The position numbers and the translations under genes are program-made. Of a stretch of 64,000 bases of DNA, positions 9,222-46,728 are shown piece by piece. The first letter of the stretch is position 1. Every line of letters begins with the position of its first letter. Origin of the DNA: a virus; IMG/VR virus record IMGVR_UViG_3300032236_000552, positions 35,865 to 99,864 of that record; one strand, given 5' to 3'. The notes beneath the pieces are model-generated. The model saw nothing but the letters and a program-made list of their open reading frames with translations, searched no databases and had not been told where the DNA came from.

Positions 9222-11219
9222 ATGAACATCATTACAACTAAGAAACAGTTAGACGACCTTGTTGAGTTTTACTCCAAGGTAGATGGATTCGCATTCGACG
9301 TCGAAACAGTTGGTGAGAACCGCATCCAACCTGTAGTCAACGACGTACTATGGATATCACTAGCGACAGATGGTCGCACCGATGTTATTCCCATGGGTCA
9401 TCCCAACGGTGACTTCCTGCATTGGGATAAAGAACTTCTCCTTAGTGGTCAACGTAAGGCCGCAGCAGGTAAGCCACTAACAGATGCTGACTACTCCAAG
9501 AACCAAGCCAAGTGGAAACCAGTCTTTGATACACCACCAGCACAGTTACTTCCTGGAGATGTATTCAAAGCATTAAAGCCATTGTTCTTTAGCGACAAGT
9601 TAAAGGTTGGTCACAACGTTAAGTTCGACCTCAAGTCAATTGCCAAGTATTACCGTGGCGTTGTTCCTAACAAGCCTTACTTTGACACCATGATGGCTGC
9701 GTTCGTTATTGACAACCGCAGTCGTGGCAAACTTGGACTCAAGGATTGTGCAGAACGATTCCTTCAGATAAAGGTTGAAAAGGGTATTGGAGCAATGGTT
9801 GAGGTTCACTCCTTCAGCGATGTTGCACACTACTCAGGCTTCGACTCAGAAGTAACGTGGAAGTTGTACAAAGCATTAGAGCCTAAGTTGCAGGGAAGCC
9901 TAAAGCAGGTGTGGGCATTGGAGATGGATGTCATTGCTGCACTCTGTGACATGGAGTTAGCAGGAGCAAACATCGATGTTGAGGAACTAAAGAAGTTAAA
10001 GAAGCGCCTTGAGATAGACATTGATGAGACTAAGGCTCGTGCATGGAAGTTGGCTGGTAAAGCCTTCCCCATGAACTCAGTGCCAGAAAAGCAAAAGATT
10101 TTGTTCTCACCAAAAGAAGAAGGCGGTCGTGGCATTAAGCCAAACCTCAAGATTAAGATTGCCCTTACTGGAAAAGGACAAGACACCGCTGCAGCAAACC
10201 AGCCGTTAAGCATAAGCCATTACTCTGTATCATCAGATGCGTTGGAGTTCTACCGTTCTAAAGACGAGTTGGTAGATGCCATCCTTGATTACCAAGACTT
10301 AAACAAGTTGATGACTACCTATGTAATGCCTTATTTGGGTGGCGAGATTACTCGTACCACTATGGGCAAAGAGCGCATTGTAGAGAAGAAGAGCCTAATG
10401 ATTAACGGGCGTGTACATACAAACTTCAAATCACACGGCGCCGAAACAGGACGTTTCTCCAGTAGTGACCCAAACCTACAGAACATTCCTAGTAGTGGAC
10501 AGTACGGTAAGTTGATTCGTAACCTGTTCGTTGCACCTCCAGGATACAAACTGGTAGTTGCTGACTACTCACAGATTGAGCCACGAGTTATCGCAGCCCT
10601 ATCAGGTGACCCCATCATGGTGGATAACTACCTAACTGGTGGCGATATCTACACCACCATCGGTAACACGATGGGCGTAGACCGTAAGGCAGGTAAGGTT
10701 TTAGTTCTGTCGATTGCCTACGGTGTTGGTCCAGATAAGATTGCTCAACAAGTGGGCTGTACTCCTACAGAGGCCCGTAAGTTGTTGGACGACTTCACTA
10801 AGAAGTTCCATGACATCTCTAAGTACAAGGCTAAGGTTGTCCGTATGGCAAAGGCTGGCTCACCTCCTTATGTGGAGACCATCTTTGGTCGTAGACGGTA
10901 CATCCCAGACCTTAAGAGCACCGACAAGGGGTTATTCGCTAGGGCTGAACGTCAAGCGTTTAACACCGTTATCCAAGGTTCTGCAGCCGATATTATGAAA
11001 CTCGCCATTGTTAGAGCACACTCCTGCTTTATCGACGAGCCAGATGTTAATGTGGTATTGACTGTGCACGATGAACTCGTTACTGTTGCTCGTGAAGATT
11101 TAGCAGAAGAAACAGCCGAAGCCATTCGGGATTCTATGGAAGGTATCAAACTTCCACAGATTACTGTTCCACTAATAGCCGATGTAAAAATCGTAGACAA
11201 ATGGGGAGAAGCCAAGTGA
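9222..11219 (+). CDS. polA: Family A DNA polymerase with 3'-5' exonuclease
   Basis: FDVET, GHNVKFD, TGRFSSSDPNLQNIP, DYSQIEPR, motif B K...YG, NTVIQGSAAD, VHDEL. Confidence 0.96.
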   Translation: MNIITTKKQLDDLVEFYSKVDGFAFDVETVGENRIQPVVNDVLWISLATDGRTDVIPMGHPNGDFLHWDKELLLSGQRKAAAGKPLTDADYSKNQAKWKPVFDTPPAQLLPGDVFKALKPLFFSDKLKVGHNVKFDLKSIAKYYRGVVPNKPYFDTMMAAFVIDNRSRGKLGLKDCAERFLQIKVEKGIGAMVEVHSFSDVAHYSGFDSEVTWKLYKALEPKLQGSLKQVWALEMDVIAALCDMELAGANIDVEELKKLKKRLEIDIDETKARAWKLAGKAFPMNSVPEKQKILFSPKEEGGRGIKPNLKIKIALTGKGQDTAAANQPLSISHYSVSSDALEFYRSKDELVDAILDYQDLNKLMTTYVMPYLGGEITRTTMGKERIVEKKSLMINGRVHTNFKSHGAETGRFSSSDPNLQNIPSSGQYGKLIRNLFVAPPGYKLVVADYSQIEPRVIAALSGDPIMVDNYLTGGDIYTTIGNTMGVDRKAGKVLVLSIAYGVGPDKIAQQVGCTPTEARKLLDDFTKKFHDISKYKAKVVRMAKAGSPPYVETIFGRRRYIPDLKSTDKGLFARAERQAFNTVIQGSAADIMKLAIVRAHSCFIDEPDVNVVLTVHDELVTVAREDLAEETAEAIRDSMEGIKLPQITVPLIADVKIVDKWGEAK

Positions 11220-24085: not shown

Positions 24086-24574
24086 ATGAACATACTTCTA
24101 TCACTAGACGGCGTACTAAGTTCGGAATCAGGGGAACCAATCCGAGCAGGAGTCGCTCTTTACTACGCCCTAAACATTAACAACCGAGTCGCACTTATGA
24201 CTGCCCGTGGCGAAGAAGACGCCAAACATTGGTTACAGTCGCACGGAATCATTAACTACGATGACTTGATTGACTCTTCTTTTGCCCTAGAAGGCGAAGA
24301 CCTAAAGAAGAGACAGTTCACTGTTAGTCGTAGCCGTGCCCCGATTGAGATGTACGTAGACTCAGACCCAACCATGTGTGCATGGGTATTTGAGACTCAG
24401 AACGTCCCTTCTGTCCTGTTCGCTCACCCAGCCTACCTACGAGTAGAGAACCGCCCAGATGCCCCTCGTAAGGTTCGTAAGTGGTCAGACATTGAGGACT
24501 CGATTACTCGTGTAAACATTGCTAGGTCAATAGATGCCCAGAAGCCTAGAGACCTAGAGTTCTGGGAAGACTAA
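24086..24574 (+). CDS. HAD-fold protein (first catalytic Asp replaced by Ser)
   Basis: ILLSLDGVL, LMTAR, YVDSD. Confidence 0.55.
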   Translation: MNILLSLDGVLSSESGEPIRAGVALYYALNINNRVALMTARGEEDAKHWLQSHGIINYDDLIDSSFALEGEDLKKRQFTVSRSRAPIEMYVDSDPTMCAWVFETQNVPSVLFAHPAYLRVENRPDAPRKVRKWSDIEDSITRVNIARSIDAQKPRDLEFWED

Positions 24575-29544: not shown

Positions 29545-30870
29545 TCACTCCAAATAGTCATTAACAACCTCGGCTGCCTTTGACTGCTGGTGACGGATAC
29601 GGTGCAGATAACGCTCCGTCGTTGTTATCGACTGGTGACCTAGACGCTCTTTTACCTCATGGACATCAACGCCTTTTGTTAGAAGGAGAGTGGCGTTGGC
29701 GTGCCGTAAGTCGTGCGTTGTTGGATACCAGCCAATACTTGACTGGGTTATGGCTTCGTTCCAAATGGCTCGCCATTTATCACGAGGTAGATAGTCTTCG
29801 CTTTTGCTAAGGCTTTGGCTTCTGCTATTGCTTCTGCTACGGCTTTGGCTTTTGCTAAGGCTTTCTACTTTGCCTTTCGCTTTGTCCTTTCTATAGTGAC
29901 TGCGGTAATCCTTTACCGCTTGCTTGCATTGGTCACACCTACAACCTCCTACGTTGTACGAGTAGGGTGTTGCGTGTTGGAATGTTCTGCTTCCAACGGT
30001 GTAACTTCCTTTGCTTTTGCTAGGACTTACTATTTTACTTGGCTTCTCTACAACTTGCTTCGAGAAGACCAAATCTTCTTTTGATAGGGCTTTTGCTGAG
30101 ACAAACGCCTGGATTTCGGCTATCAACGAAGAACTTAGTGTAACAGTCCTCTTATGACCGTTCTTTGTGCGTGGCTCTACCGCAAATCTTCGCAGGTCGG
30201 AACTATATTTTTTGCCTACATCTGAGACTGTTCTTCTTATATACACTTCTTTTGAGGTAAAGTTAAAGTCTTTAACACGCAACTCTGTTGCTTCTCCAAA
30301 CCGACAACCAGAACCCATCAGAAATCTGGCAAATAACTTTGCGCCGTCTGTGGGTAACTTCTTTACGATAGCCTGAAAGTCTTTAGCGTCTAGCGTGTAG
30401 GTTGGGTCGGGTCTTACTATCTGAACTTTGATACGGTGGGTTGGGTTGGTTGGGATTACCTCATCATCAACGGCTAACCTGAATAGGTATCCTAGAGCCG
30501 TTTTGAGGTGGGAGATTGTGCTAGGGCTTATGCCCTGCTTCTGTAAGTCCTCTAGCAACTTACGTATATCTTGCTTCTTGATTGCGGTCATCTTCTTGCC
30601 TTCTAAAGTGGGCTGGGCATACTTCTTTAGAAGGGTGGTGTAAGTCTTTTTAGTGATAGCCCGTAGGTCTCGTCTCTCCAGCAATTTGTCCATATAAGTA
30701 TCGAACGTCTCTTGGTATTCGGGCAGGGTCTCAAACTCTCCTGCTTCGGCTAGGAGTCCTGCATTTAGGGCTTTGGCTTTGGTGGGGTAAGTTCCCACGC
30801 TTTTTGTCTTGCCCTCTGAATTGCGGTAATAGCCTGTATAACGCTTGTTACGTTCGACTACATACGCCAT
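29545..30870 (-). CDS. int: Tyrosine recombinase/integrase with inserted Zn-binding and Ser-repeat segment
   Basis: GCRFGEA (R), TKNG (K), HDLRH, LGH, TTERY catalytic residues; probable start MAYVVERN at 30870. Confidence 0.92.
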   Translation of the reverse strand: MAYVVERNKRYTGYYRNSEGKTKSVGTYPTKAKALNAGLLAEAGEFETLPEYQETFDTYMDKLLERRDLRAITKKTYTTLLKKYAQPTLEGKKMTAIKKQDIRKLLEDLQKQGISPSTISHLKTALGYLFRLAVDDEVIPTNPTHRIKVQIVRPDPTYTLDAKDFQAIVKKLPTDGAKLFARFLMGSGCRFGEATELRVKDFNFTSKEVYIRRTVSDVGKKYSSDLRRFAVEPRTKNGHKRTVTLSSSLIAEIQAFVSAKALSKEDLVFSKQVVEKPSKIVSPSKSKGSYTVGSRTFQHATPYSYNVGGCRCDQCKQAVKDYRSHYRKDKAKGKVESLSKSQSRSRSNSRSQSLSKSEDYLPRDKWRAIWNEAITQSSIGWYPTTHDLRHANATLLLTKGVDVHEVKERLGHQSITTTERYLHRIRHQQSKAAEVVNDYLE

Positions 30871-30894
30871 GACTTGCCCCCTTTGTGTGGCGTG

Positions 30895-30908
30895 GGTCAC
30901 GTGTGACC
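30895..30908. promoter_or_regulatory. Palindrome upstream of integrase
   Basis: GGTCAC-GT-GTGACC. Confidence 0.35.
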
Positions 30909-31021: not shown

Positions 31022-31216
31022 TTAGCGAACTTCTTTTACCTGTGGCTTAGTTCTTTGCGCCTGACTTGTTAAGTGCCACTTGTTACATATCGGACACTTG
31101 TAGGAAGCGCAAGGAAGTTTCCTTCCGTCTAACCAATGAGACTTCCAAATAATCGAAAGGACTCGTTCGGCTTTTGCTCTAGTAGGAAATGCTTTCTTAT
31201 CAACACACTTAGCCAT
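31022..31216 (-). CDS. Small zinc-binding protein
   Basis: C..KKAF...YKCPICNKWHLTS. Confidence 0.7.
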   Translation of the reverse strand: MAKCVDKKAFPTRAKAERVLSIIWKSHWLDGRKLPCASYKCPICNKWHLTSQAQRTKPQVKEVR

Positions 31217-31336
31217 GCAAGCACCGTTCCTTGCAGTCAGCGCAGAACCACATCACATAAAGACCTTTAGTGGTCGTTACGGCGTGACCGTCCTCAAACG
31301 CCTTCTCTTGCCCGCAGGTGTCGCATAGTTCTAAAG

Positions 31337-31516
31337 TTACATATCCCATAGTGCCTCATCTTGTTGTGCTTCTAGTTCGGTATCTACTGCCTTATCTAAG
31401 GCTTCGGTGCAGATACAACACTCTGAGCAGGTTAAGCAAAACTCGCAGACTTCATTATTATCCCACGAGTCACACTCATCACAATACTTCTTATCGGTAT
31501 CGCCCTCAGACTCCAT
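31337..31516 (-). CDS. Cys-rich 59-aa protein ending QQDEALWDM
   Basis: Read by hand; TAATG coupling with SD GGAGG; 8 Cys. Confidence 0.65.
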   Translation of the reverse strand: MESEGDTDKKYCDECDSWDNNEVCEFCLTCSECCICTEALDKAVDTELEAQQDEALWDM

Positions 31517-31776
31517 TACTCCTCCTCGCCATTTGCTCCGAGAGGCTTACGATATTCGATACCCCTATGCAGGATAATCGTCTTAAAGGTGGCACTTACA
31601 TAGTTACCGTTATCATCAACATCTCTTGGGTTGTTAATCTGTTCCGCAATAGTGTCCAAAAGAATATCCATATTTCTTTTGCTCAATACTCGGTCAGTAT
31701 TAAACTCAAACTCAATCTTGTAATTACGGCGTGCCTTAAACTTAGACTTCTCAATACGAATAACTGCTTTTTCCAT
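31516..31776 (-). CDS. Hypothetical protein
   Basis: SD GGAGG, coupled. Confidence 0.65.
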   Translation of the reverse strand: MEKAVIRIEKSKFKARRNYKIEFEFNTDRVLSKRNMDILLDTIAEQINNPRDVDDNGNYVSATFKTIILHRGIEYRKPLGANGEEE

Positions 31777-31965
31777 TTAGTCCTCCTTAGTCTCTGAGAC
31801 TACCTTTAGTTGGTAATCACTCTTGTTCATATCCATATTCCCAATGACTTGATTAGTCTTATCGAACACGACCTCGTAGAAACTTCGCAGGTCGGATACG
31901 TCTTTAGTGTCGAAAGTAATCGGCACTTGTGTTGTTAGTTCTACCATATAAGTATTTATTGCCAT
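31777..31965 (-). CDS. Hypothetical protein
   Basis: SD GGAGG. Confidence 0.6.
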   Translation of the reverse strand: MAINTYMVELTTQVPITFDTKDVSDLRSFYEVVFDKTNQVIGNMDMNKSDYQLKVVSETKED

Positions 31966-31969
31966 TTGT

Positions 31970-32281
31970 TTATGCCTCCCATAGTTCTTGGTCTTTTTCT
32001 ATATCTACTACTACTTCTGACTCCTCTAAGTATTCATTTAGACACTCTAAGATTTGGTCTCCAACATCAGGACTGTCGTACACTCCGTTAGTTGTGGACT
32101 CCCATGCTTCATCAAAGAGGTTATTTAGTTTCTCATCAGTCAGGGAGTAGTTCTCCTGCATATCTCCTAACGTGTCCTCTACCCAACTCATAGCGAGTTT
32201 TCTATCCCACCAAAGAACCAAAATACTTTCTTTAGGGTCGTACTTAGAAAGTTCTTTTATGATTTGTTCTACTGTTGCCAT
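31970..32281 (-). CDS. Acidic protein, paralog of 32285..32596
   Basis: MATVEQIIKELSKYDP...DQELWEA. Confidence 0.7.
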   Translation of the reverse strand: MATVEQIIKELSKYDPKESILVLWWDRKLAMSWVEDTLGDMQENYSLTDEKLNNLFDEAWESTTNGVYDSPDVGDQILECLNEYLEESEVVVDIEKDQELWEA

Positions 32282-32284
32282 TTG

Positions 32285-32596
32285 TTATCCCTCCCATAGT
32301 TCTTGGTCACTTGCCGCTTTTTCTCTTTCTACAACATGACGAGTGCATACATCTTGGATAATGTCTGAAACACTTTCGTTAAACTTCTCCCAAACATACT
32401 CGTCGTTCCATACCAGCCTAAAGATAGTGTTAAAGATTTCATCTGAGAAGTCTTTATCAACATCAAAGCCGTTTACGTCTTGCTCTAAGATTTCTGTTGC
32501 TAAGTCTGCCTTCACGTACCACATATCAAAGATAGGTTCGTTAGGGTCTAACTTCTGTAACTGTTCTATAACTTCTTTTACTGTTGATACTGCCAT
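32285..32596 (-). CDS. Acidic protein, paralog of 31970..32281
   Basis: MAVSTVKEVIEQLQKLDP...DQELWEG. Confidence 0.7.
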   Translation of the reverse strand: MAVSTVKEVIEQLQKLDPNEPIFDMWYVKADLATEILEQDVNGFDVDKDFSDEIFNTIFRLVWNDEYVWEKFNESVSDIIQDVCTRHVVEREKAASDQELWEG

Positions 32597-32599
32597 TTG

Positions 32600-32842
32600 T
32601 TATCCCTCCCATAATGCTAGGTCTTGTTCTTCTTCTTCTAACAACGCAATAATCGTGCGTTCACAATCAGAGCGAGTTCTGTAATCGTTGCTATCTGTCC
32701 TTTCGTATTTATCTTTAGTAGAGGTCTGCACTAGCCACCACCAATCGCTATCGGGATTTCGTGAGATAACGAACCGATTATCTAAAGTTGCATACGAGCC
32801 TGTGTGTAACTTCTTTAACTTTAACTTATACATCTTAGACAC
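32600..32842 (-). CDS. Hypothetical protein ending EQDLALWEG
   Basis: SD GGAGG. Confidence 0.65.
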   Translation of the reverse strand: MSKMYKLKLKKLHTGSYATLDNRFVISRNPDSDWWWLVQTSTKDKYERTDSNDYRTRSDCERTIIALLEEEEQDLALWEG

Positions 32843-33440
32843 TTGTTTCCTCCGTATCCCATAGCCCTGCTTCTTGTTCGTCTTGTTCTAACTGGCACTC
32901 ACTACATATAGAAGGAGTATTTTCTTTATAGCAAGGCAACCACTCACTACAACTCATGCAACTGTGGTGTTCTGACTCCTCGCCCCAATACTTGTCGTAG
33001 ATTTCACACGTCCACTCGTCACCTTCCTCCTCTAAGAAGTCCTGACCATTTGCATACGTGTAAGTTCCGTAGAACGCACCACCTTCGTCATAGTATTTGT
33101 AAGTCATTTTGACTTTTGGATTGTCTTTAGACAACTGCAAAAGAACATAGTGAACTGGTGACCATGCAGTCCAAAAGTTAATATGCACCGAACCCTGTTC
33201 CCAATCATCAGTTATATATGGGTCGCACATATCCCACTTAGTACCCCAGTTGTTTATTGACCAGTTGTACCAATTTCTTTCCTCATCAACTGGCATAGGA
33301 ATAATCTTGTGAAAAGAAAATGGACTAGCAGGGTGAGCCTCTGTTGCTTCACTCTCTGTAATCTGAACCTGCTTCATCAGTTTATTTAACTGCTTAGGCT
33401 TTCCAGTTATATAGAGAGTGCTTACACAATGATTTGGCAT
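32835..33440 (-). CDS. YubB/DUF1281-like ferredoxin-fold protein
   Basis: MPNHC, WYNWSINNWGTKWD, FWTAWSP, YYDEG motifs. Confidence 0.75.
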   Translation of the reverse strand: MPNHCVSTLYITGKPKQLNKLMKQVQITESEATEAHPASPFSFHKIIPMPVDEERNWYNWSINNWGTKWDMCDPYITDDWEQGSVHINFWTAWSPVHYVLLQLSKDNPKVKMTYKYYDEGGAFYGTYTYANGQDFLEEEGDEWTCEIYDKYWGEESEHHSCMSCSEWLPCYKENTPSICSECQLEQDEQEAGLWDTEETSV

Positions 33441-33443
33441 TTG

Positions 33444-34052
33444 TTATTCCTCCTTTAGTTTTCTGTTAGTTAATTGACGGTACGCACCCGATTTGCCGTC
33501 AGTCTGACGGTATCCATATCGGACTAGGCGTGAGTTAATTGCGGCTGGTGTAATGCCTAAAGAACTTGCAACACGATAAGTAGTGACTCCACTATCTACG
33601 AGTTGCTTAACGAGTGCCATAAACTCCTCGGCTTCCTCACGATACTTAGGACTACTGCTACGGACTTGTCGTGCCTTGTCGTGTAGTTCTTGTAGTCGTG
33701 TAAGGACATCAGGGTCAATGGCAACTCTCTTTATCTGTTGCTTATAGACTTCTACATGAGGAATTGGTGGGATAGGTAAGTGCTTTATCACCAACTGCAC
33801 CCCAGTCTCGTTGTTGCTATCAAACTTGGCATAAAGACGAATAGCCTCTCGTGTTAGTCCTAGTTCATTAGCGATAGATTGCAAAGTCCAACCAGCCTCA
33901 GACAACTTAGTTGCATAGGCTCTACGTTCTTTTAATGGCAGACTTCTTAAGATTTCCCCAACTTCTTTAGGGAGAACATGGTGCTTGTGTACGGTCTTGT
34001 TACCAACAAACACACTTTCTTTTTCTTTTGTATGTCTAAATGGATAAGTCAT
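33444..34052 (-). CDS. Double helix-turn-helix DNA-binding protein
   Basis: GWTLQSIANELGLTREAIR and GVTTYRVASSLGITPAAINSRL. Confidence 0.8.
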   Translation of the reverse strand: MTYPFRHTKEKESVFVGNKTVHKHHVLPKEVGEILRSLPLKERRAYATKLSEAGWTLQSIANELGLTREAIRLYAKFDSNNETGVQLVIKHLPIPPIPHVEVYKQQIKRVAIDPDVLTRLQELHDKARQVRSSSPKYREEAEEFMALVKQLVDSGVTTYRVASSLGITPAAINSRLVRYGYRQTDGKSGAYRQLTNRKLKEE

Positions 34053-34068
34053 GGGTTTATGCTCCTTG

Positions 34069-34557
34069 TTATTTCGCAGGTCGGATTAGCGATACACCGT
34101 TGTTGGTGATAGCCGTTAGTTCTTGTTGCAACTTAACTACTTGCTCTGCAAACGATTTGCGTGCGTAGTCATGGTATGAGTCAGGGATTTGCGCTAAGAC
34201 TTCTTTATCTATTTGGTGAAACCACTCATCACGAAAACGCAAGCCACCGTCTTTACGATAGCCTCGCACCTTTAAGTTGTTAAGTACGAAGGACTCTTTA
34301 TCCTCGTAATTGAGTTGGTAATCTAATCGTTCTAGTCTTACCTTCTTTTTAGTACCAGTCTTTTGCCAACCATTAGTTGCAGAGTTCCAGTTGTAATCCC
34401 ACTCATCTATCTCAATGATTATCTGCTCTGTCTCTGATAGTTCTACATAACAACTCATGCTGATACCGCTACTACTCTCAACACTTGTGTCTGTGCTTGG
34501 TGCAGTTATTACTTTCATATCATGTCCTCCTTGTTTCGGTACTACGTATAGGGTCAT
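34069..34557 (-). CDS. Hypothetical protein
   Basis: Coupled start; 13-mer overlaps its last codons. Confidence 0.6.
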   Translation of the reverse strand: MTLYVVPKQGGHDMKVITAPSTDTSVESSSGISMSCYVELSETEQIIIEIDEWDYNWNSATNGWQKTGTKKKVRLERLDYQLNYEDKESFVLNNLKVRGYRKDGGLRFRDEWFHQIDKEVLAQIPDSYHDYARKSFAEQVVKLQQELTAITNNGVSLIRPAK

Positions 34558-34991
34558 TAGTTCTCCCATAGTTCTTGTTCTTGTTCTAGTTCTATTGCGT
34601 AGTCTCTATCCATAATCTCTAGTAAGTGGTCGTAGGCTTCTATGGGGTTGTGGTGGACACAATCCTCAAACTCCTCCTCATAAATACTTCGACACTCATA
34701 CCAGTTGTTCATGTCTATAACTAACTTGTCTTGTTCTACGAGTTCATACAACTTTTGGTCGGTGTTAATTCCTGTTCTTTCTAAGTCCTCAATAGTTACT
34801 AACTTATCGTCCAAAAGAAGTCTGACTTCTCCATAGACTCCAACATAACCGCACTCATTAGTTGGAGTCTTTACTGTGATTACTGGGTTGTGACCGCCAT
34901 GCCAAAGACTGTCTGCTTTATCAGGGTCAGTTAGGTCGTGAATAACATCAGCAGACCAGCCTTCGGGTGCTTCATATACAACTGGCTTCAT
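34557..34991 (-). CDS. Acidic protein ending EQEQELWEN
   Basis: TGATG-coupled start at 34991. Confidence 0.65.
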   Translation of the reverse strand: MKPVVYEAPEGWSADVIHDLTDPDKADSLWHGGHNPVITVKTPTNECGYVGVYGEVRLLLDDKLVTIEDLERTGINTDQKLYELVEQDKLVIDMNNWYECRSIYEEEFEDCVHHNPIEAYDHLLEIMDRDYAIELEQEQELWEN

Positions 34992-36538: not shown

Positions 36539-38539
36539 TTAAGCATTAACCAAACGGCGTGAGATAGCAATACGCACTAGGTCTTTACCGAGTGTGAGAA
36601 TATCTCGTGCAGTTTTGATATTAGTCATTAACTCAAACTCGTGGCGATAACGATTAAGAACATCATCATTTAAGTCTGAGTCATAGAGAAGTGCTTGGCA
36701 GGTAAGGACACCAGCGTTACGCATTTCTGTAACTGCTTGCTCTCCTTCTTTTGTATCCCATGCACCGTCAGTAATCATAAAGAGGATTTTGATTGGCTTC
36801 TTGCTCTCAGCCAAAACTCTCTTAGCAAACAAAAGAGACTCACATGGATTTGTTCCACCGCTTGCTCCTCCGTCACGAATAGTTGTACCTGCTCGTTCAT
36901 CAGCACCATAAAGAAGTGTTGTGCCGTAATCGAATAGTGCAACTGTTGTACGTGCTTGCACACGCTCTAGTGCAGACTTAATAGCCCACATGGATTGGTA
37001 AGCATGATTGGCTGAGTCACCACTCATACTGCCCGACTTATCAAGGAGGATAACTGCCTCAATATCGCAAACATCATCTATGCCCTCAGTCCATGAGTCA
37101 AAGATTGTGTCGAAGTCTGCTCCTTGTATATAACGCTGAACGTTCACCTTTCCAGTATCGGTAGCACGCAACCATGCTGGGTCATAATCAGAACGCAAAC
37201 GCTCTAGTTCACGACCAAACGATTTAGCAACACCGATTAACTCAGGAGGAGTTGCAACGTCTTTGTAGTTAGCACGTTCAGGAGTCTTAGCGTTACCGCC
37301 GTCAAGGTCGCTAGAGATACCTAACTGTTTTGCAATTCGATTAACTTCTTTAGAAAGTTCTTTTGCAACATCATTAAATATATCTTGCAACGTATCTGTG
37401 ACTTGTTGATTGTCTCCTGTTGTTCCAATGCTTGTACCAATGCCCTTGCCACCTTCTTGTGGTGAAGGACTGTCGTACTCGCTATCGCTTTCAGTATCAG
37501 AGTCACCGTCACCGTCAGAGTCACCGTCACCGCTACCGTCAAAAGGCTTACCGCCATTACCGTTAGCAGTATTGGTATCGTCTTTAGCAGTATCGCTATC
37601 GCCGTTACCTTCATCATCAGACTCATCAGCAGGAGTATCAAGAACAACATCAAGAACAACATCACCCTTCTTAGGAGAACGTTGCTTGTCTTTTTCTTGT
37701 TCTGATTTTTTCGCAGGTCGGACGTTGCTTGACTCGTATCCGTCTGTTGGTCGGTGGTCGTGTCCATGAGGATTATGCACTCGCACCCAAACGTCACGTC
37801 CACCTTCTCCTTCACCTTCACCGTTGCCAGTATTAACTGGTGGAAGGTTCTTTAGAAGTTCTGCATACTCTGTAATGAGTTGGTATGCAGTCTCGGTCAC
37901 TTCATCATTACCAGTAAGAATTAAATCGTTGTATTGGTCAATGATTTCAGCGAACGCATGAATATCTTGTGGGTTCTTAAACTTATCTACCGACAACTGG
38001 CGCAACTCAACTGGTAGATAAGTGCGACCATAGATAAGTGGGAAAGAAGTTGCTACTGCTTCCTCGTTCTGAATTAGATAGTCAGCGATTGTTGCAGTAA
38101 GCCAACCTTCCAATGGTGGGAGATAGCCAACGAGTAAGTTCTCGATACGCATATCCTCTAAAGAATTAAAGGCTTGCCATAACTCACGAGAGTTATCAGA
38201 CTCTTTAATCTTGATAACAAGATTGCTTCCGTTTCTTGGCGTATAACGCAAATGAGCGTACTCATGGAAGCAGAGACCTTGCAACGACAAAATTGACTTA
38301 GCAGTGAAGTCATATTTAATTTCTGCAAGATTAAAACTTACTGACGAAGTGCTTGACCATGCAGGGGCAGGATACTCAGGACGATTAACGATATTGACTT
38401 TAATCTTGCGACCAGTCAAAACGCTAAGTGTCTTAGTGAATATCTCACCAAAAGACTGTAAGTGATTTTGCTTTTTGATTTGTAATTCTTTTTCTTTATC
38501 TGTCTGTTCTACTGCAAACTTCGGCATTACGGTAGTCAT
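36539..38539 (-). CDS. VWA-domain protein (CobT-like) with HExxH motif and acidic linker
   Basis: HEYAH; D/G/S-rich linker; MIDAS DKSGSM, GGTNP, ITDG. Confidence 0.88.
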   Translation of the reverse strand: MTTVMPKFAVEQTDKEKELQIKKQNHLQSFGEIFTKTLSVLTGRKIKVNIVNRPEYPAPAWSSTSSVSFNLAEIKYDFTAKSILSLQGLCFHEYAHLRYTPRNGSNLVIKIKESDNSRELWQAFNSLEDMRIENLLVGYLPPLEGWLTATIADYLIQNEEAVATSFPLIYGRTYLPVELRQLSVDKFKNPQDIHAFAEIIDQYNDLILTGNDEVTETAYQLITEYAELLKNLPPVNTGNGEGEGEGGRDVWVRVHNPHGHDHRPTDGYESSNVRPAKKSEQEKDKQRSPKKGDVVLDVVLDTPADESDDEGNGDSDTAKDDTNTANGNGGKPFDGSGDGDSDGDGDSDTESDSEYDSPSPQEGGKGIGTSIGTTGDNQQVTDTLQDIFNDVAKELSKEVNRIAKQLGISSDLDGGNAKTPERANYKDVATPPELIGVAKSFGRELERLRSDYDPAWLRATDTGKVNVQRYIQGADFDTIFDSWTEGIDDVCDIEAVILLDKSGSMSGDSANHAYQSMWAIKSALERVQARTTVALFDYGTTLLYGADERAGTTIRDGGASGGTNPCESLLFAKRVLAESKKPIKILFMITDGAWDTKEGEQAVTEMRNAGVLTCQALLYDSDLNDDVLNRYRHEFELMTNIKTARDILTLGKDLVRIAISRRLVNA

Positions 38540-38619: not shown

Positions 38620-39963
38620 TTACGCAACAACTTCGCTTTCGAGATGAGAACGGTGTGCTTCCAAAAGAAGTTTCACACTTGCCTTCTCATCATCTCGGAA
38701 GTTGTTAAGGAAGTTATCAACTGCATAGTTGTAACTAATATCTCTAGCAAACTTCTCAAAGTTCTTTAGAAGTCTTGTAGAGATTGGTGTCTCATAAACA
38801 CCAGCGATTGCTTCCTCACGCATTTGTTGTGCGAGGCGTAGCAAGGTCGGTGACTTAATAAACTGCTTCTCAATTTCGATGTCGTACTCGAAAGTCCACT
38901 TGTGTTGGAAGCGGTCAGCGAACGCTTGATTAAACTCTTGCGTTCCACGATAACCTCGTGAAGCAGGATTGTAAGAACCGATAAGCAAGACATTTTCTCC
39001 TGCTTCGATTACTTCGCCCTTGTGGTCTAGCAATATCAACTGACGGCGTGAGTCCAACGTTGGGTGAATTGCAGAGGAAAACTTAGAGGGCATACAAGAC
39101 AACTCATCTAAGTTAATAACTGCATTTCCATTACGCCAGCACTCTGTAAAACCACCGTCTTGCCAAACAAGATTGCCTTGCTCGCTAGGAATAACCTTGC
39201 CGAACAACTGTCCTGTATCTATGCCAACGTTAAAGTTCACCGAGTAATAACGCAAACCTCTTTTGCTTGCATAGACCATGCCACTTGTTGTCTTACCAGT
39301 ACCAGCGTCTCCTGCAATAAGGATATTGTGACCGTTCTTCATGGCGTAGTCGTACAACTCTGTTTCAGTTTCACCACTTGCAAACGTGCGTTCGACATAA
39401 CCTGAGATTTCAGGATTGCTTGCAGAAGGTACGAACGACAATGAGTTTTCATCAAAGTTGTGTTCGATTGCTTGCAACGGTTCACGAACAACCTTAATGA
39501 CTGGTGCTGGTGCAACTGTTGTCTGTGCTTTCGTTGCAGACTTATCTGAACGTCCGTCAGAACGATAAGCAGACAATAGGTTGGGGTCTTGTTGTATCAA
39601 AGTATCAACCTCTTTCAGTAAGTCTCCAACTGTTTTGTTAGAGACTGATTGGTGACGTAAGCGATATTGCTTCGTCAATTTCTGAATTAGAACAACTGGG
39701 TATGAATTGTTAGCGAGTGCAGACTGGTCTGCTTCTGTAAGTGGTGTTGATAGAACCTCACCGACAATAAGGTCGGTGTAAGTATCAGCGTTAGAAATAA
39801 TTGTTTCGTAATCAAGCGCATTAGTCCAAGCGTTGCTTTCGCCTCGCCCTCCATTTGTAATGCGAGTAAGTGCGTACTGCTTACCGTTATGGCTTGCGAG
39901 TAATAGTTGTTGCAAAGTATCTGCTTGTGAAGTCTTACCTGTAATGAGAATTGCATACGACAT
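38620..39963 (-). CDS. MoxR/CbbQ-type AAA+ ATPase
   Basis: GDAGTGKT, WQDG, NLDEL, YNP...YRGT..FNQAFADRF, ISTRLL. Confidence 0.9.
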   Translation of the reverse strand: MSYAILITGKTSQADTLQQLLLASHNGKQYALTRITNGGRGESNAWTNALDYETIISNADTYTDLIVGEVLSTPLTEADQSALANNSYPVVLIQKLTKQYRLRHQSVSNKTVGDLLKEVDTLIQQDPNLLSAYRSDGRSDKSATKAQTTVAPAPVIKVVREPLQAIEHNFDENSLSFVPSASNPEISGYVERTFASGETETELYDYAMKNGHNILIAGDAGTGKTTSGMVYASKRGLRYYSVNFNVGIDTGQLFGKVIPSEQGNLVWQDGGFTECWRNGNAVINLDELSCMPSKFSSAIHPTLDSRRQLILLDHKGEVIEAGENVLLIGSYNPASRGYRGTQEFNQAFADRFQHKWTFEYDIEIEKQFIKSPTLLRLAQQMREEAIAGVYETPISTRLLKNFEKFARDISYNYAVDNFLNNFRDDEKASVKLLLEAHRSHLESEVVA

Positions 39964-44253: not shown

Positions 44254-44324
44254 TCCCAGGTCGTCTAACGGTAGGACATCGCCCTTTGGAGGCGAGTATC
44301 TTGGTTCGAATCCAGGCCAGGGAG
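44254..44324 (+). tRNA. tRNA-Gln (anticodon TTG), CCA not encoded
   Basis: Cloverleaf: acceptor TCCCAGG/CCAGGGA (one A-A mismatch), anticodon arm TCGCC-CTTTGGA-GGCGA, T arm CTTGG-TTCGAAT-CCAGG. Confidence 0.92.
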
Positions 44325-44383
44325 CGTACCTCCCCTAGGAAACTAGATTTCTCTTTTTCCAGTAAAGGCAGTAGCCTAAATCC

Positions 44384-46251: not shown

Positions 46252-46728
46252 TTGGCTGGCGGTGGAATGGTGAAGATGAAAGAAGACCAATTCGGGAGAA
46301 AAGACGCCTATCGGGGCGCAAAGCACGAAATCTCGTTACCACTTACCAACACACATCGAGACCCATATACCAAGCGTGAGTACACGAAGCGAGTTGAGGA
46401 ACAACTAAAGGAGAGGAAGGAACGTATGCACGCAGGGGGAATGGCGCCACCCAAGTACGACCTACCTAAGACCGAAACTGAGTTTGGAAAACAACTGACC
46501 GTTTCCGTCACGATGATGGACACACCTGAGACCGAAGCGCTCGTTTTTAATCAGGTGATACAAGATTACCAACAATACAAAGCCGAGAACTTCCCTGACT
46601 TCAAGGGTTTCCCAGAGATTAAGAGCCAGTTGGACCCTATCCAATCGGTCCTCAAGGTCGGATGGTATGTGGTCGTTCCCAACAGGTTCCTTATCGACTC
46701 CAATGAAGAAGAACTCTGGAATAGTTAA
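46252..46728 (+). CDS. Hypothetical protein
   Basis: 158 aa ORF; start uncertain. Confidence 0.6.
   Translation: MAGGGMVKMKEDQFGRKDAYRGAKHEISLPLTNTHRDPYTKREYTKRVEEQLKERKERMHAGGMAPPKYDLPKTETEFGKQLTVSVTMMDTPETEALVFNQVIQDYQQYKAENFPDFKGFPEIKSQLDPIQSVLKVGWYVVVPNRFLIDSNEEELWNS

Follow-up and report, generated by a model that had tools for sequence, protein, structure and literature searches.

Short docking motifs on unrelated proteins are the means by which molecular hubs, such as the single-stranded DNA-binding protein (SSB) and the sliding clamps, organise their clients. The acidic C-terminal tips of bacterial SSB (...D-D-D-I-P-F) and of gp2.5 and gp4 of phage T7 dock on such hubs, where the free carboxylate of the terminal aromatic residue is read, and sliding clamps bind peptides such as the bacterial QL[SD]LF or those at the C-termini of gp43, gp33 and gp55 of T4/RB69. 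Here we describe an acidic tail with a conserved Leu-Trp pair that recurs near the C-terminus of seven proteins encoded in a 64,000-nucleotide stretch of viral DNA, which we refer to as the window (bases 35865-99864 of the 99,864-bp IMG/VR virus record IMGVR_UViG_3300032236_000552, a record with direct terminal repeats). Comparison with related phages shows, at the level of sequence, that selection acts on the tail as a peptide, and it lends good support to its assignment as a portable short linear motif carried by small proteins from at least five mutually unrelated families in one lineage of uncultured temperate phages of about 100 kb.

The tail resembles the SSB and T7 gp2.5 tips in that a short acidic stretch is combined with a hydrophobic or aromatic residue at a flexible tail end that would serve as a common handle. 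It differs from them in the position of the tryptophan, which is never terminal but is followed by 1 to 26 further residues, and from SSB in that its carriers are many unrelated small proteins instead of a single hub protein. Clamp-binding peptides offer another likeness, as there too one short hydrophobic motif is found on unrelated proteins, which on the clamp side visit a single ring. However, in contrast to the clamp motifs QL[SD]LF and QxxLxxFF, the position three residues before the tryptophan (W-3) is Gln in just 18 of 73 tails of the family termed A below and otherwise Lys, Thr, Glu or others, whereas the fixed residue is an Asp or Glu at W-4. Unlike a clamp client, the PolA-like phage DNA polymerase (9222-11219) ends in ...VDKWGEAK and carries no tail. 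The similarity to beta-clamp and SSB-tail motifs proposed in a first-pass annotation of the window thus fails on the defining features of both, a fixed Gln and a terminal aromatic residue. Finally, the capsid-targeting sequence of T4 likewise places one short peptide on many unrelated small phage proteins, but it is N-terminal and marks late packaged proteins, whereas the tail described here is C-terminal and acidic and belongs to genes in integrase-proximal arms.

Results

Seven small proteins with an acidic Leu-Trp tail

Six neighbouring open reading frames (ORFs) on the minus strand of the window carry the tail, and an ORF check on the sequence reproduced the C-termini quoted in the first-pass annotation. 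These are p1 (31337-31516), a Cys-rich acidic protein of 59 residues ending in ...QQDEALWDM; p2 (31970-32281) and p3 (32285-32596), both of 103 residues, with the ends ...KDQELWEA and ...SDQELWEG; p4 (32600-32842), of about 77-80 residues, with the end ...EQDLALWEG; p5 (32835-33440), of 201 residues, whose end ...EQEAGLWDTEETSV extends seven residues beyond L193-W194; and p6 (34557-34991), of 144 residues if counted from the probable start codon at 34991 in a frame that is open to 35078, which ends in ...EQEQELWEN. A seventh tail (...EEELWNS) is found on a distal protein of the rightward arm, which is encoded on the plus strand at 46252-46728, so that 46252 is the start of this ORF and not its end, as had been annotated. 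Its Leu codon is CTC and neither a gene start nor a ribosome binding site follows.

Genome-wide, [DE]xxLW is found within the last 14 residues of seven proteins, whereas 2000 per-protein shuffles gave 0.28 on average and never more than three, and it occurs internally only three times among 29,630 residues. At the DNA level, YTATGGGA is present ten times in the window where 2.9 copies are expected, with six of the ten residing in tails. In tails of four families, scored without requiring an acid, W-4 is Asp or Glu in 73 of 73, 28 of 29, 8 of 8 and 4 of 4 cases (113 of 114 in total). The residue at W+1 is Asp or Glu in about 85% of tails and Gln, Asn, Gly or Lys in several, and W+3, where present, is mostly Glu. 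With 1 to 26 residues beyond the tryptophan, the consensus read from these sequences is [DE]-x-x-L-W-[DE]-x-(E), located near the C-terminus rather than at it.

The carriers have little else in common. As previously annotated, p2 and p3 are paralogs, which we assign to family A, and p4, p5 and p6 are unrelated to this family and to each other, as judged from BLAST and from hhalign probabilities below 3% after removal of the tails. Family A itself comprises the group of p2 and p3 (A1) and a second homologous group (A2; hhalign probability 91%). Only p5 can be placed in a described family, the other tailed proteins having no Pfam or PHROG family. It carries a DUF1281_C domain and a Foldseek search with its model matched only Api92 (2ijr). 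We know of no function assigned to the DUF1281/Api92 family. The C-terminal part of p5 is rich in Cys and His, of which C145, H158, H159, C161, C164, C170, C179 and C182 are invariant and probably bind zinc. The isoelectric points of the six neighbouring proteins range from 4.05 to 5.1, and that of the distal protein is 6.0.

A looser relative, which we have not included in the seven, is found in a HAD-like protein on the plus strand (24086-24574) with a Phe-Trp pair in its end ...DLEFWED. Its homologues also terminate in an acid and an aromatic pair (FFGD/NFFGD, EFWSD, DFWSE, FIRYD, LFRFDD) and, judged by these sequences, the end may be a cousin of the tail.

Conservation in related phages

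Querying the phage collection with the DNA of the region, in both near and distant modes, gave no match, and p3 as sole query recovered no related locus, with the protein homologue search returning p3 alone. Scans seeded with proteins identified about 15 sister contigs, several of them 98-100 kb long with terminal repeats, and about 15 loci underlie the codon statistics described below. Family A was extended by searching 1.84 billion cluster representatives with a profile, which yielded 112 proteins; the scan for its loci was carried out with a subgroup of 12 sequences, the alignment of 70 being too diverse.

In the sister contigs, all homologues of family A, p4, p5 and p6 carry the tail. Fifteen aligned family-A sequences show a mean column identity of 31%, with the Leu and Trp of the tail as the only invariant columns, and the same two residues alone are invariant among 70 tailed representatives, where the mean column identity drops to 22%. 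Within the last 30 residues, LW is found in 73 of the 112 family-A cluster representatives, and members of 72-90 residues mostly stop where the linker would begin, thus consisting of the body without linker or tail. Since this body of about 80 residues, with an N-terminus similar to M-x-V-K-E-x-I-x-x-L, is widespread without either (database proteins P0157-P0232), the tail appears to be a lineage-specific addition. In case of p5, 29 of its 33 closest database relatives have retained LW, the remaining four containing L-L or L-S at the equivalent position, and DUF1281 proteins at a larger distance are mostly devoid of the motif. The tail is present in all eight p4 homologues and in a homologue of p1 (L095:5794-6051, ...EREEGLWDM), and the sister contig L015 encodes the tails LWGDTNESK and LWDSPTTKKGEQ.

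Each of the four complete genomes that were scanned (G000, G005, G006 and G007) encodes five to seven tailed proteins, all of them small (59-224 residues). Several of the respective genes reside outside the leftward operon, with tails that end in LWNS, LWDE or LWES and with CTC, CTT or TTG as Leu codon. Among these are homologues of the distal protein in G006 and G007, which terminate in EEDLWNS and EETLWDE, again with CTC, in a family that has no adjacent downstream start.

The first-pass annotation had proposed to check whether homologues keep the pair where the downstream gene and its ribosome binding site differ. Both the Leu-Trp pair and the acid at W-4 persist in homologues although the downstream gene, its Shine-Dalgarno (SD) site, the Leu codon and the spacing between tail and stop codon have changed, which identifies the tail as a tag at the level of the peptide rather than a mere by-product of SD sites and start codons.

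Relationship to Shine-Dalgarno sites and gene overlaps

The strongest link between the tail and the expression of neighbouring genes concerns the junctions p4/p3, p3/p2 and p2/next gene, which have YTATGGGAGGSATAA(A)CAAATGGCA in common. As in SD sites embedded in upstream gene ends for translational coupling, TGGGAGG is here followed by 7-8 nucleotides and an ATG and clearly serves the next gene as its SD. In contrast to what would be expected for an embedded SD, this role fits only about one third of the tails and accounts neither for the frame, the Leu and the acid at W-4, nor for the tails remote from a start. The assignment of TGG GAG as SD of the next gene, which had been made for four tails, stands for p2, p3 and p4 and is only possible for p6, with a better AAGGAGG located downstream ahead of a later ATG. 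By our own reading of 40 listed tails, TGGGAG resides 5-12 nucleotides ahead of the next start, and can double as SD, in 12-14 cases, in line with the earlier view that this explanation is a partial one.

Where the SD is found elsewhere, the tail is nevertheless retained. The SD of p4 is supplied by T-E-E codons later in p5 and not by those of its L-W-D, and across p5 homologues the tail is located 7-26 residues before the stop codon. In a clade ending in LWDKE or LWDTE, the SD is an AAGGAG after the tail, with the L-W-D codons too far upstream, and L007:8222-8536 ends in LWDN, followed by a spacer of 25 nucleotides that bears its own SD. A GGAGG-like sequence at a distance of 5-12 nucleotides from the next start is absent from the tails of this clade, p5, L007:8222-8536, L015 and the family of the distal protein. 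Conversely, GGAG-containing gene ends in the same genomes encode mostly G-E, K-E, E-E or L-E, illustrating that an SD does not require Trp, and the tail is always read as L-W-x, unlike an SD element, which is free of frame. We regard the use of TGG GAG G as SD as an economy and not the cause of the tail.

The ATG contained in CTATGG, which had also been pointed out, starts the next gene after p1 but not after the other tails. The gene that starts within the L-W codons of p1 encodes a Cys-rich, possibly zinc-ribbon protein of 46 residues (at about 31209-31351) beginning with MGYV. As an explanation for the tails in general, a conserved start within YTATGG was rejected. Its frame matches that of the next gene only at TAATG junctions, which force this frame, and all that it opens in the LWDKE clade is M-G-stop.

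Nucleotide-level signals in the linkers

The description of the tail as a peptide does not account for all features of its coding sequence, and several observations speak against an explanation by the peptide alone. Of 56 operon tails, 52 have CTA or TTA (YTA) as Leu codon, compared to about 49% of the Leu codons in these genes and 9 of 17 in internal Leu-Trp pairs. In the ten codons before L-W, A is found at the wobble position of 74% of the codons that permit it, compared to 48% for the bodies of these genes and 45% for genes that lack a tail. Moreover, p2, p3 and p4 have a junction of 23-25 nucleotides in common, which indicates local duplication. The MGYV start inside p1 is kept in sister phages with or without overlap by the upstream gene, and the LWDM of p1 may thus be partly forced by it. 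Finally, all tailed phages belong to one lineage, and their common descent accounts for part of the conservation count.

The codon bias is not confined to the Leu of the tail. Other Leu codons within the ten-codon linker stretch are YTA in 78% of cases and the enrichment of A at the wobble position extends to two-fold codons for Glu, Gln and Lys (89% vs 67%) and to four-fold codons (57% vs 38%). Linker stretches such as 34572-34601 and 32615-32644 are depleted of G and frequently contain GAA/CAA repeats. From these sequences, the preference for CTA or TTA mostly reflects a regional bias towards A at the wobble position of the acidic linker, and we have largely rejected a specific TATGG word in DNA or RNA as its origin, as the 52 of 56 are close to the 78% found in linkers and as CTC, CTT and TTG are used outside the operon. 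Equally, the tails do not behave as an oriented DNA repeat of the stoperator type: only about 8 nucleotides are common, at gene ends these keep to a single frame, and codons vary outside the operon. Some constraint at the level of RNA or DNA, or some history, thus acts on the same stretch, and the wobble bias constitutes the main residue opposing a purely peptide-level account. Possible origins include the avoidance of SD-like GAGG runs in Glu-rich linkers, a low degree of mRNA structure before a coupled start and slippage in GAA/CAA repeats.

These data bear on two explanations in which the peptide would be incidental. In the first, the tail would be a by-product of coupling and overlap, with TGGGAGG acting as SD, CTATGG providing an ATG and the acidic run encoding an A-rich, unstructured leader. 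The 12-14 tails with suitable spacing, the wobble bias of the linkers and the overlap of p1 with a conserved start agree with this proposal. However, it leaves at least 26 of 40 tails unaccounted for, it explains neither the fixed frame, the invariant Leu and the nearly invariant acid at W-4 nor the CTC, TTG and CTT tails without downstream gene, and it is at odds with the many other ways in which GGAG is encoded at gene ends and with the 3' ends of non-tail genes, which show no enrichment of A at the wobble position (45.5% vs 45.1%). We thus regard this account as largely refuted and its probability as very small.

In the second, a short conserved DNA junction would mark the boundary of cassettes and help small early genes to recombine or duplicate, with the peptide as a passenger. 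Consistent with this idea, the common stretch at p4/p3, p3/p2 and p2/next includes intergenic bases and ATGGCA, the positions of family-A genes within the operon vary among phages and an identical tail of 24 nucleotides, GAACAA GAACAA GAA CTA TGG GAG, is found in the non-orthologous genes of p6 (34572-34595) and of a p5 homologue in another phage (L003:6346-6369), which could have originated from repeat slippage or from transfer of a tail between genes. Conversely, outside the paralogs the common stretch of about 8 nucleotides is too short for homologous exchange, the frame is constant, the motif of p5 is located well inside the gene, and the tails outside the operon differ as DNA but not as peptide, which makes it hard to assign more than a marginal probability to such a mechanism.

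Predicted structure of the tail

Structural models were obtained with AlphaFold2 (AF2), whose confidence is expressed as predicted local distance difference test (pLDDT). In the model of p5, based on 33 aligned sequences (mean pLDDT 92), a helix comprising residues 180-194 ends exactly at L193-W194, with pLDDT values of 93 up to residue 190 that drop beyond. In the model of p3, based on 15 sequences (mean pLDDT 74), a long C-terminal helix (residues 66-102) continues into the tail, where the confidence decreases to 67 and then to 52. In a helix, the positions i, i+3, i+4 and i+7 are located on one face, and from these models we infer that Leu and Trp would form a hydrophobic knob flanked by carboxylates.

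A helix that is confidently predicted up to L-W, together with the constant spacing between the last CxxC and L-W among most p5 relatives, would also be compatible with an intrinsic structural role, where the tail caps the end of a helix by packing on its own body or acts as a handle by which tailed proteins bind each other. We find this improbable, as unrelated folds would not need an identical cap, bodies of family A exist without tail, and the confidence of the models of p3 and p5 drops across the tail.

We are similarly sceptical of a role of the tail as a degron, by which early proteins would be singled out for timed removal through a host protease or a phage-directed one. Although the tag is common to proteins of early-looking arms, which may need short lives, and places an exposed hydrophobic pair where a flexible tail ends, described C-terminal degrons such as ssrA are read at the extreme and usually non-polar C-terminus, whereas the tails end in Glu, Ala, Gly, Asn, Asp, Lys or longer acidic extensions, with 1-26 mostly acidic residues after the Trp. 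In addition, the tails are not linked to any protease gene.

Genomic context and candidate readers

The neighbouring tailed genes are part of a leftward arm on the minus strand, which in order of transcription encodes a MoxR-type AAA+ ATPase (38620-39963; AAA_5, E 3.7e-12), a VWA protein (36539-38539), conserved proteins of 193, 56 and 237 residues, the last containing DUF6011, the small genes and finally a tyrosine integrase (29545-30900). The VWA protein contains a low-complexity linker of acidic character and an intact MIDAS (an adhesion site that depends on a metal ion; DKSGS...GGT...TDG). Its Pfam scores of about 20 bits are under the curated cut-offs, with the signature DxSxS...T...D directly legible in the sequence, and the same residues are found in the VWA protein of L003. 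The leftward arm and the divergent rightward arm, which together hold the tailed genes, look early by their appearance.

Between both arms resides a tRNA-Gln (anticodon TTG; 44254-44325), adjoining a stretch of low GC content (38%) at about 40-44 kb that resembles a control region. A 13-mer, TCCGACCTGCGAA, is present in eight copies, one of them with a single mismatch, on the minus strand between 30189 and 41072 (0.03 expected). Its copies share a single orientation and are confined to the leftward arm, where they are found at gene ends and in intergenic gaps, such as 34073-34085 at the end of a gene for 166 residues, and also at 31884-31896 inside a gene for 62 residues. By its sequence and distribution, this set looks like operators of the stoperator type, a feature separate from the tails. 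In the sister phages L004 and L005, a different repeated word (TTCGGGATAGAAAA-like) is located just after the MoxR and VWA genes and one for 114 residues and may be the counterpart of this 13-mer.

The adjacent MoxR/VWA pair is an evident candidate for a protein that would read the tail. A described system with a similar composition is the rubisco activase CbbQO, where the MIDAS of the VWA protein binds a carboxylate of the substrate and where the C-terminal peptide of the substrate stimulates the ATPase activity of MoxR (PMC4660213). The phage resembles CbbQO in that one operon encodes both an AAA_5 ATPase and a VWA protein whose MIDAS is intact, although here the link is one of co-location within one lineage. 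By analogy, a carboxylate adjoining Leu-Trp would be bound by the MIDAS metal, and the small proteins would be remodelled, loaded or released by the AAA+ ring. Besides this precedent for the recognition of carboxylates and C-terminal peptides (PMC4660213) and the conserved MIDAS in the window and in L003, the proposal draws on the fact that the pair heads the operon in every tailed sister contig of sufficient extent. This co-occurrence is confounded, however, because all tailed phages belong to one lineage. Among 28 records of other phages with tail-less DUF1281 homologues, three contain a MoxR-like gene. In one of these distant phages, L052 (MoxR 34% identity), MoxR, VWA and DUF1281 are found in one locus of 14.5 kb that contains no [DE]xxLW tail. 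Furthermore, some tailed genes are located outside the operon, and the acidic residue after Trp is not universal. On balance, we consider a role of the tail as client signal of the MoxR/VWA pair as rather unlikely. Just upstream of the DUF1281 gene of L052, a protein of 64 residues (L052:6814-7008) contains two Trp-acid pairs near its end (LEWEG...EVWEVDE), which, from sequence, may be a variant of the tag.

Alternatively, the tail could dock on a hub of the host, such as RNA polymerase, the sliding clamp or a nucleoid protein, and thereby bring proteins engaged in host takeover or anti-defence to one target. The carriers are small, acidic, fast-evolving ORFans of early-looking arms, p5 has the fold of a family without known function and neither a phage clamp (no match to DNA_pol3_beta_3) nor an SSB that might serve as reader was detected in the phage. 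As points to the contrary, the tails have neither the Gln that clamp motifs keep at a fixed position nor the carboxylate of a terminal aromatic residue that is typical of SSB-type tips, and a scan of species genomes for prophages, made with the family of the 193-residue protein, found none. Among the tailed proteins, none has a known function from which the hub could be deduced. We thus regard docking on a host hub as a serious possibility, albeit a doubtful one.

Discussion

The tail investigated in this study is best explained as a peptide tag that a lineage of temperate phages of about 100 kb has added to small and mostly very acidic proteins, with isoelectric points of about 4-5, from five or more families that are unrelated to each other. 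The carriers are encoded in two divergent, early-looking arms, chiefly in the leftward operon that is led by MoxR and VWA and located beside the integrase. In these proteins, an acidic linker rich in Glu, Gln and Lys, which is probably helical, ends with the motif at a distance of 1 to 26 residues from the C-terminus. The placement of the acid (i), Leu and Trp (i+3, i+4) and Glu (i+7) on the same face of this helix would generate a hydrophobic knob framed by carboxylates and, in about one third of the cases, the Trp-Glu codons (TGG GAG G) double as SD of a tightly coupled next gene.

The repeated appearance of the same knob on unrelated bodies suggests that it plugs all carriers into a common reader and, although the described evidence is drawn from sequences and models, we consider it probable that the tails dock on one shared partner. 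Candidates for this reader would include products of the same operon, namely the VWA MIDAS together with MoxR, the 193-residue protein or the DUF6011 protein, as well as a hub of the host. In its most specific form, which appears slightly less likely than the client signal in general, [DE]xxLW[DE] would be a client tag whose carboxylate next to the Leu-Trp pair is gripped by the MIDAS of the VWA protein, and small proteins for host takeover or anti-defence, in a set that changes, would be loaded, unfolded or released by the AAA+ ring. To our knowledge, no such tag has been described for any MoxR/VWA pair, and our search of the literature on DUF1281, on shared tails of phage early proteins and on MoxR/VWA tails found no report of the motif.

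Irrespective of the identity of the reader, the tail provides a handle on fast-evolving phage ORFans that are left blank by searches of sequence and fold, since a single tail peptide could fish out the partner common to its carriers. If it were true that the adjacent MoxR/VWA pair reads the tail, the motif would provide the missing substrate signal for a widespread and poorly understood class of AAA+ proteins. In this case, no client signal would have been defined for a MoxR/VWA pair before it, and it would reveal a new kind of effector handling by phages. More generally, our results suggest that the addressing of accessory proteins by short peptides is perhaps common in large phages.

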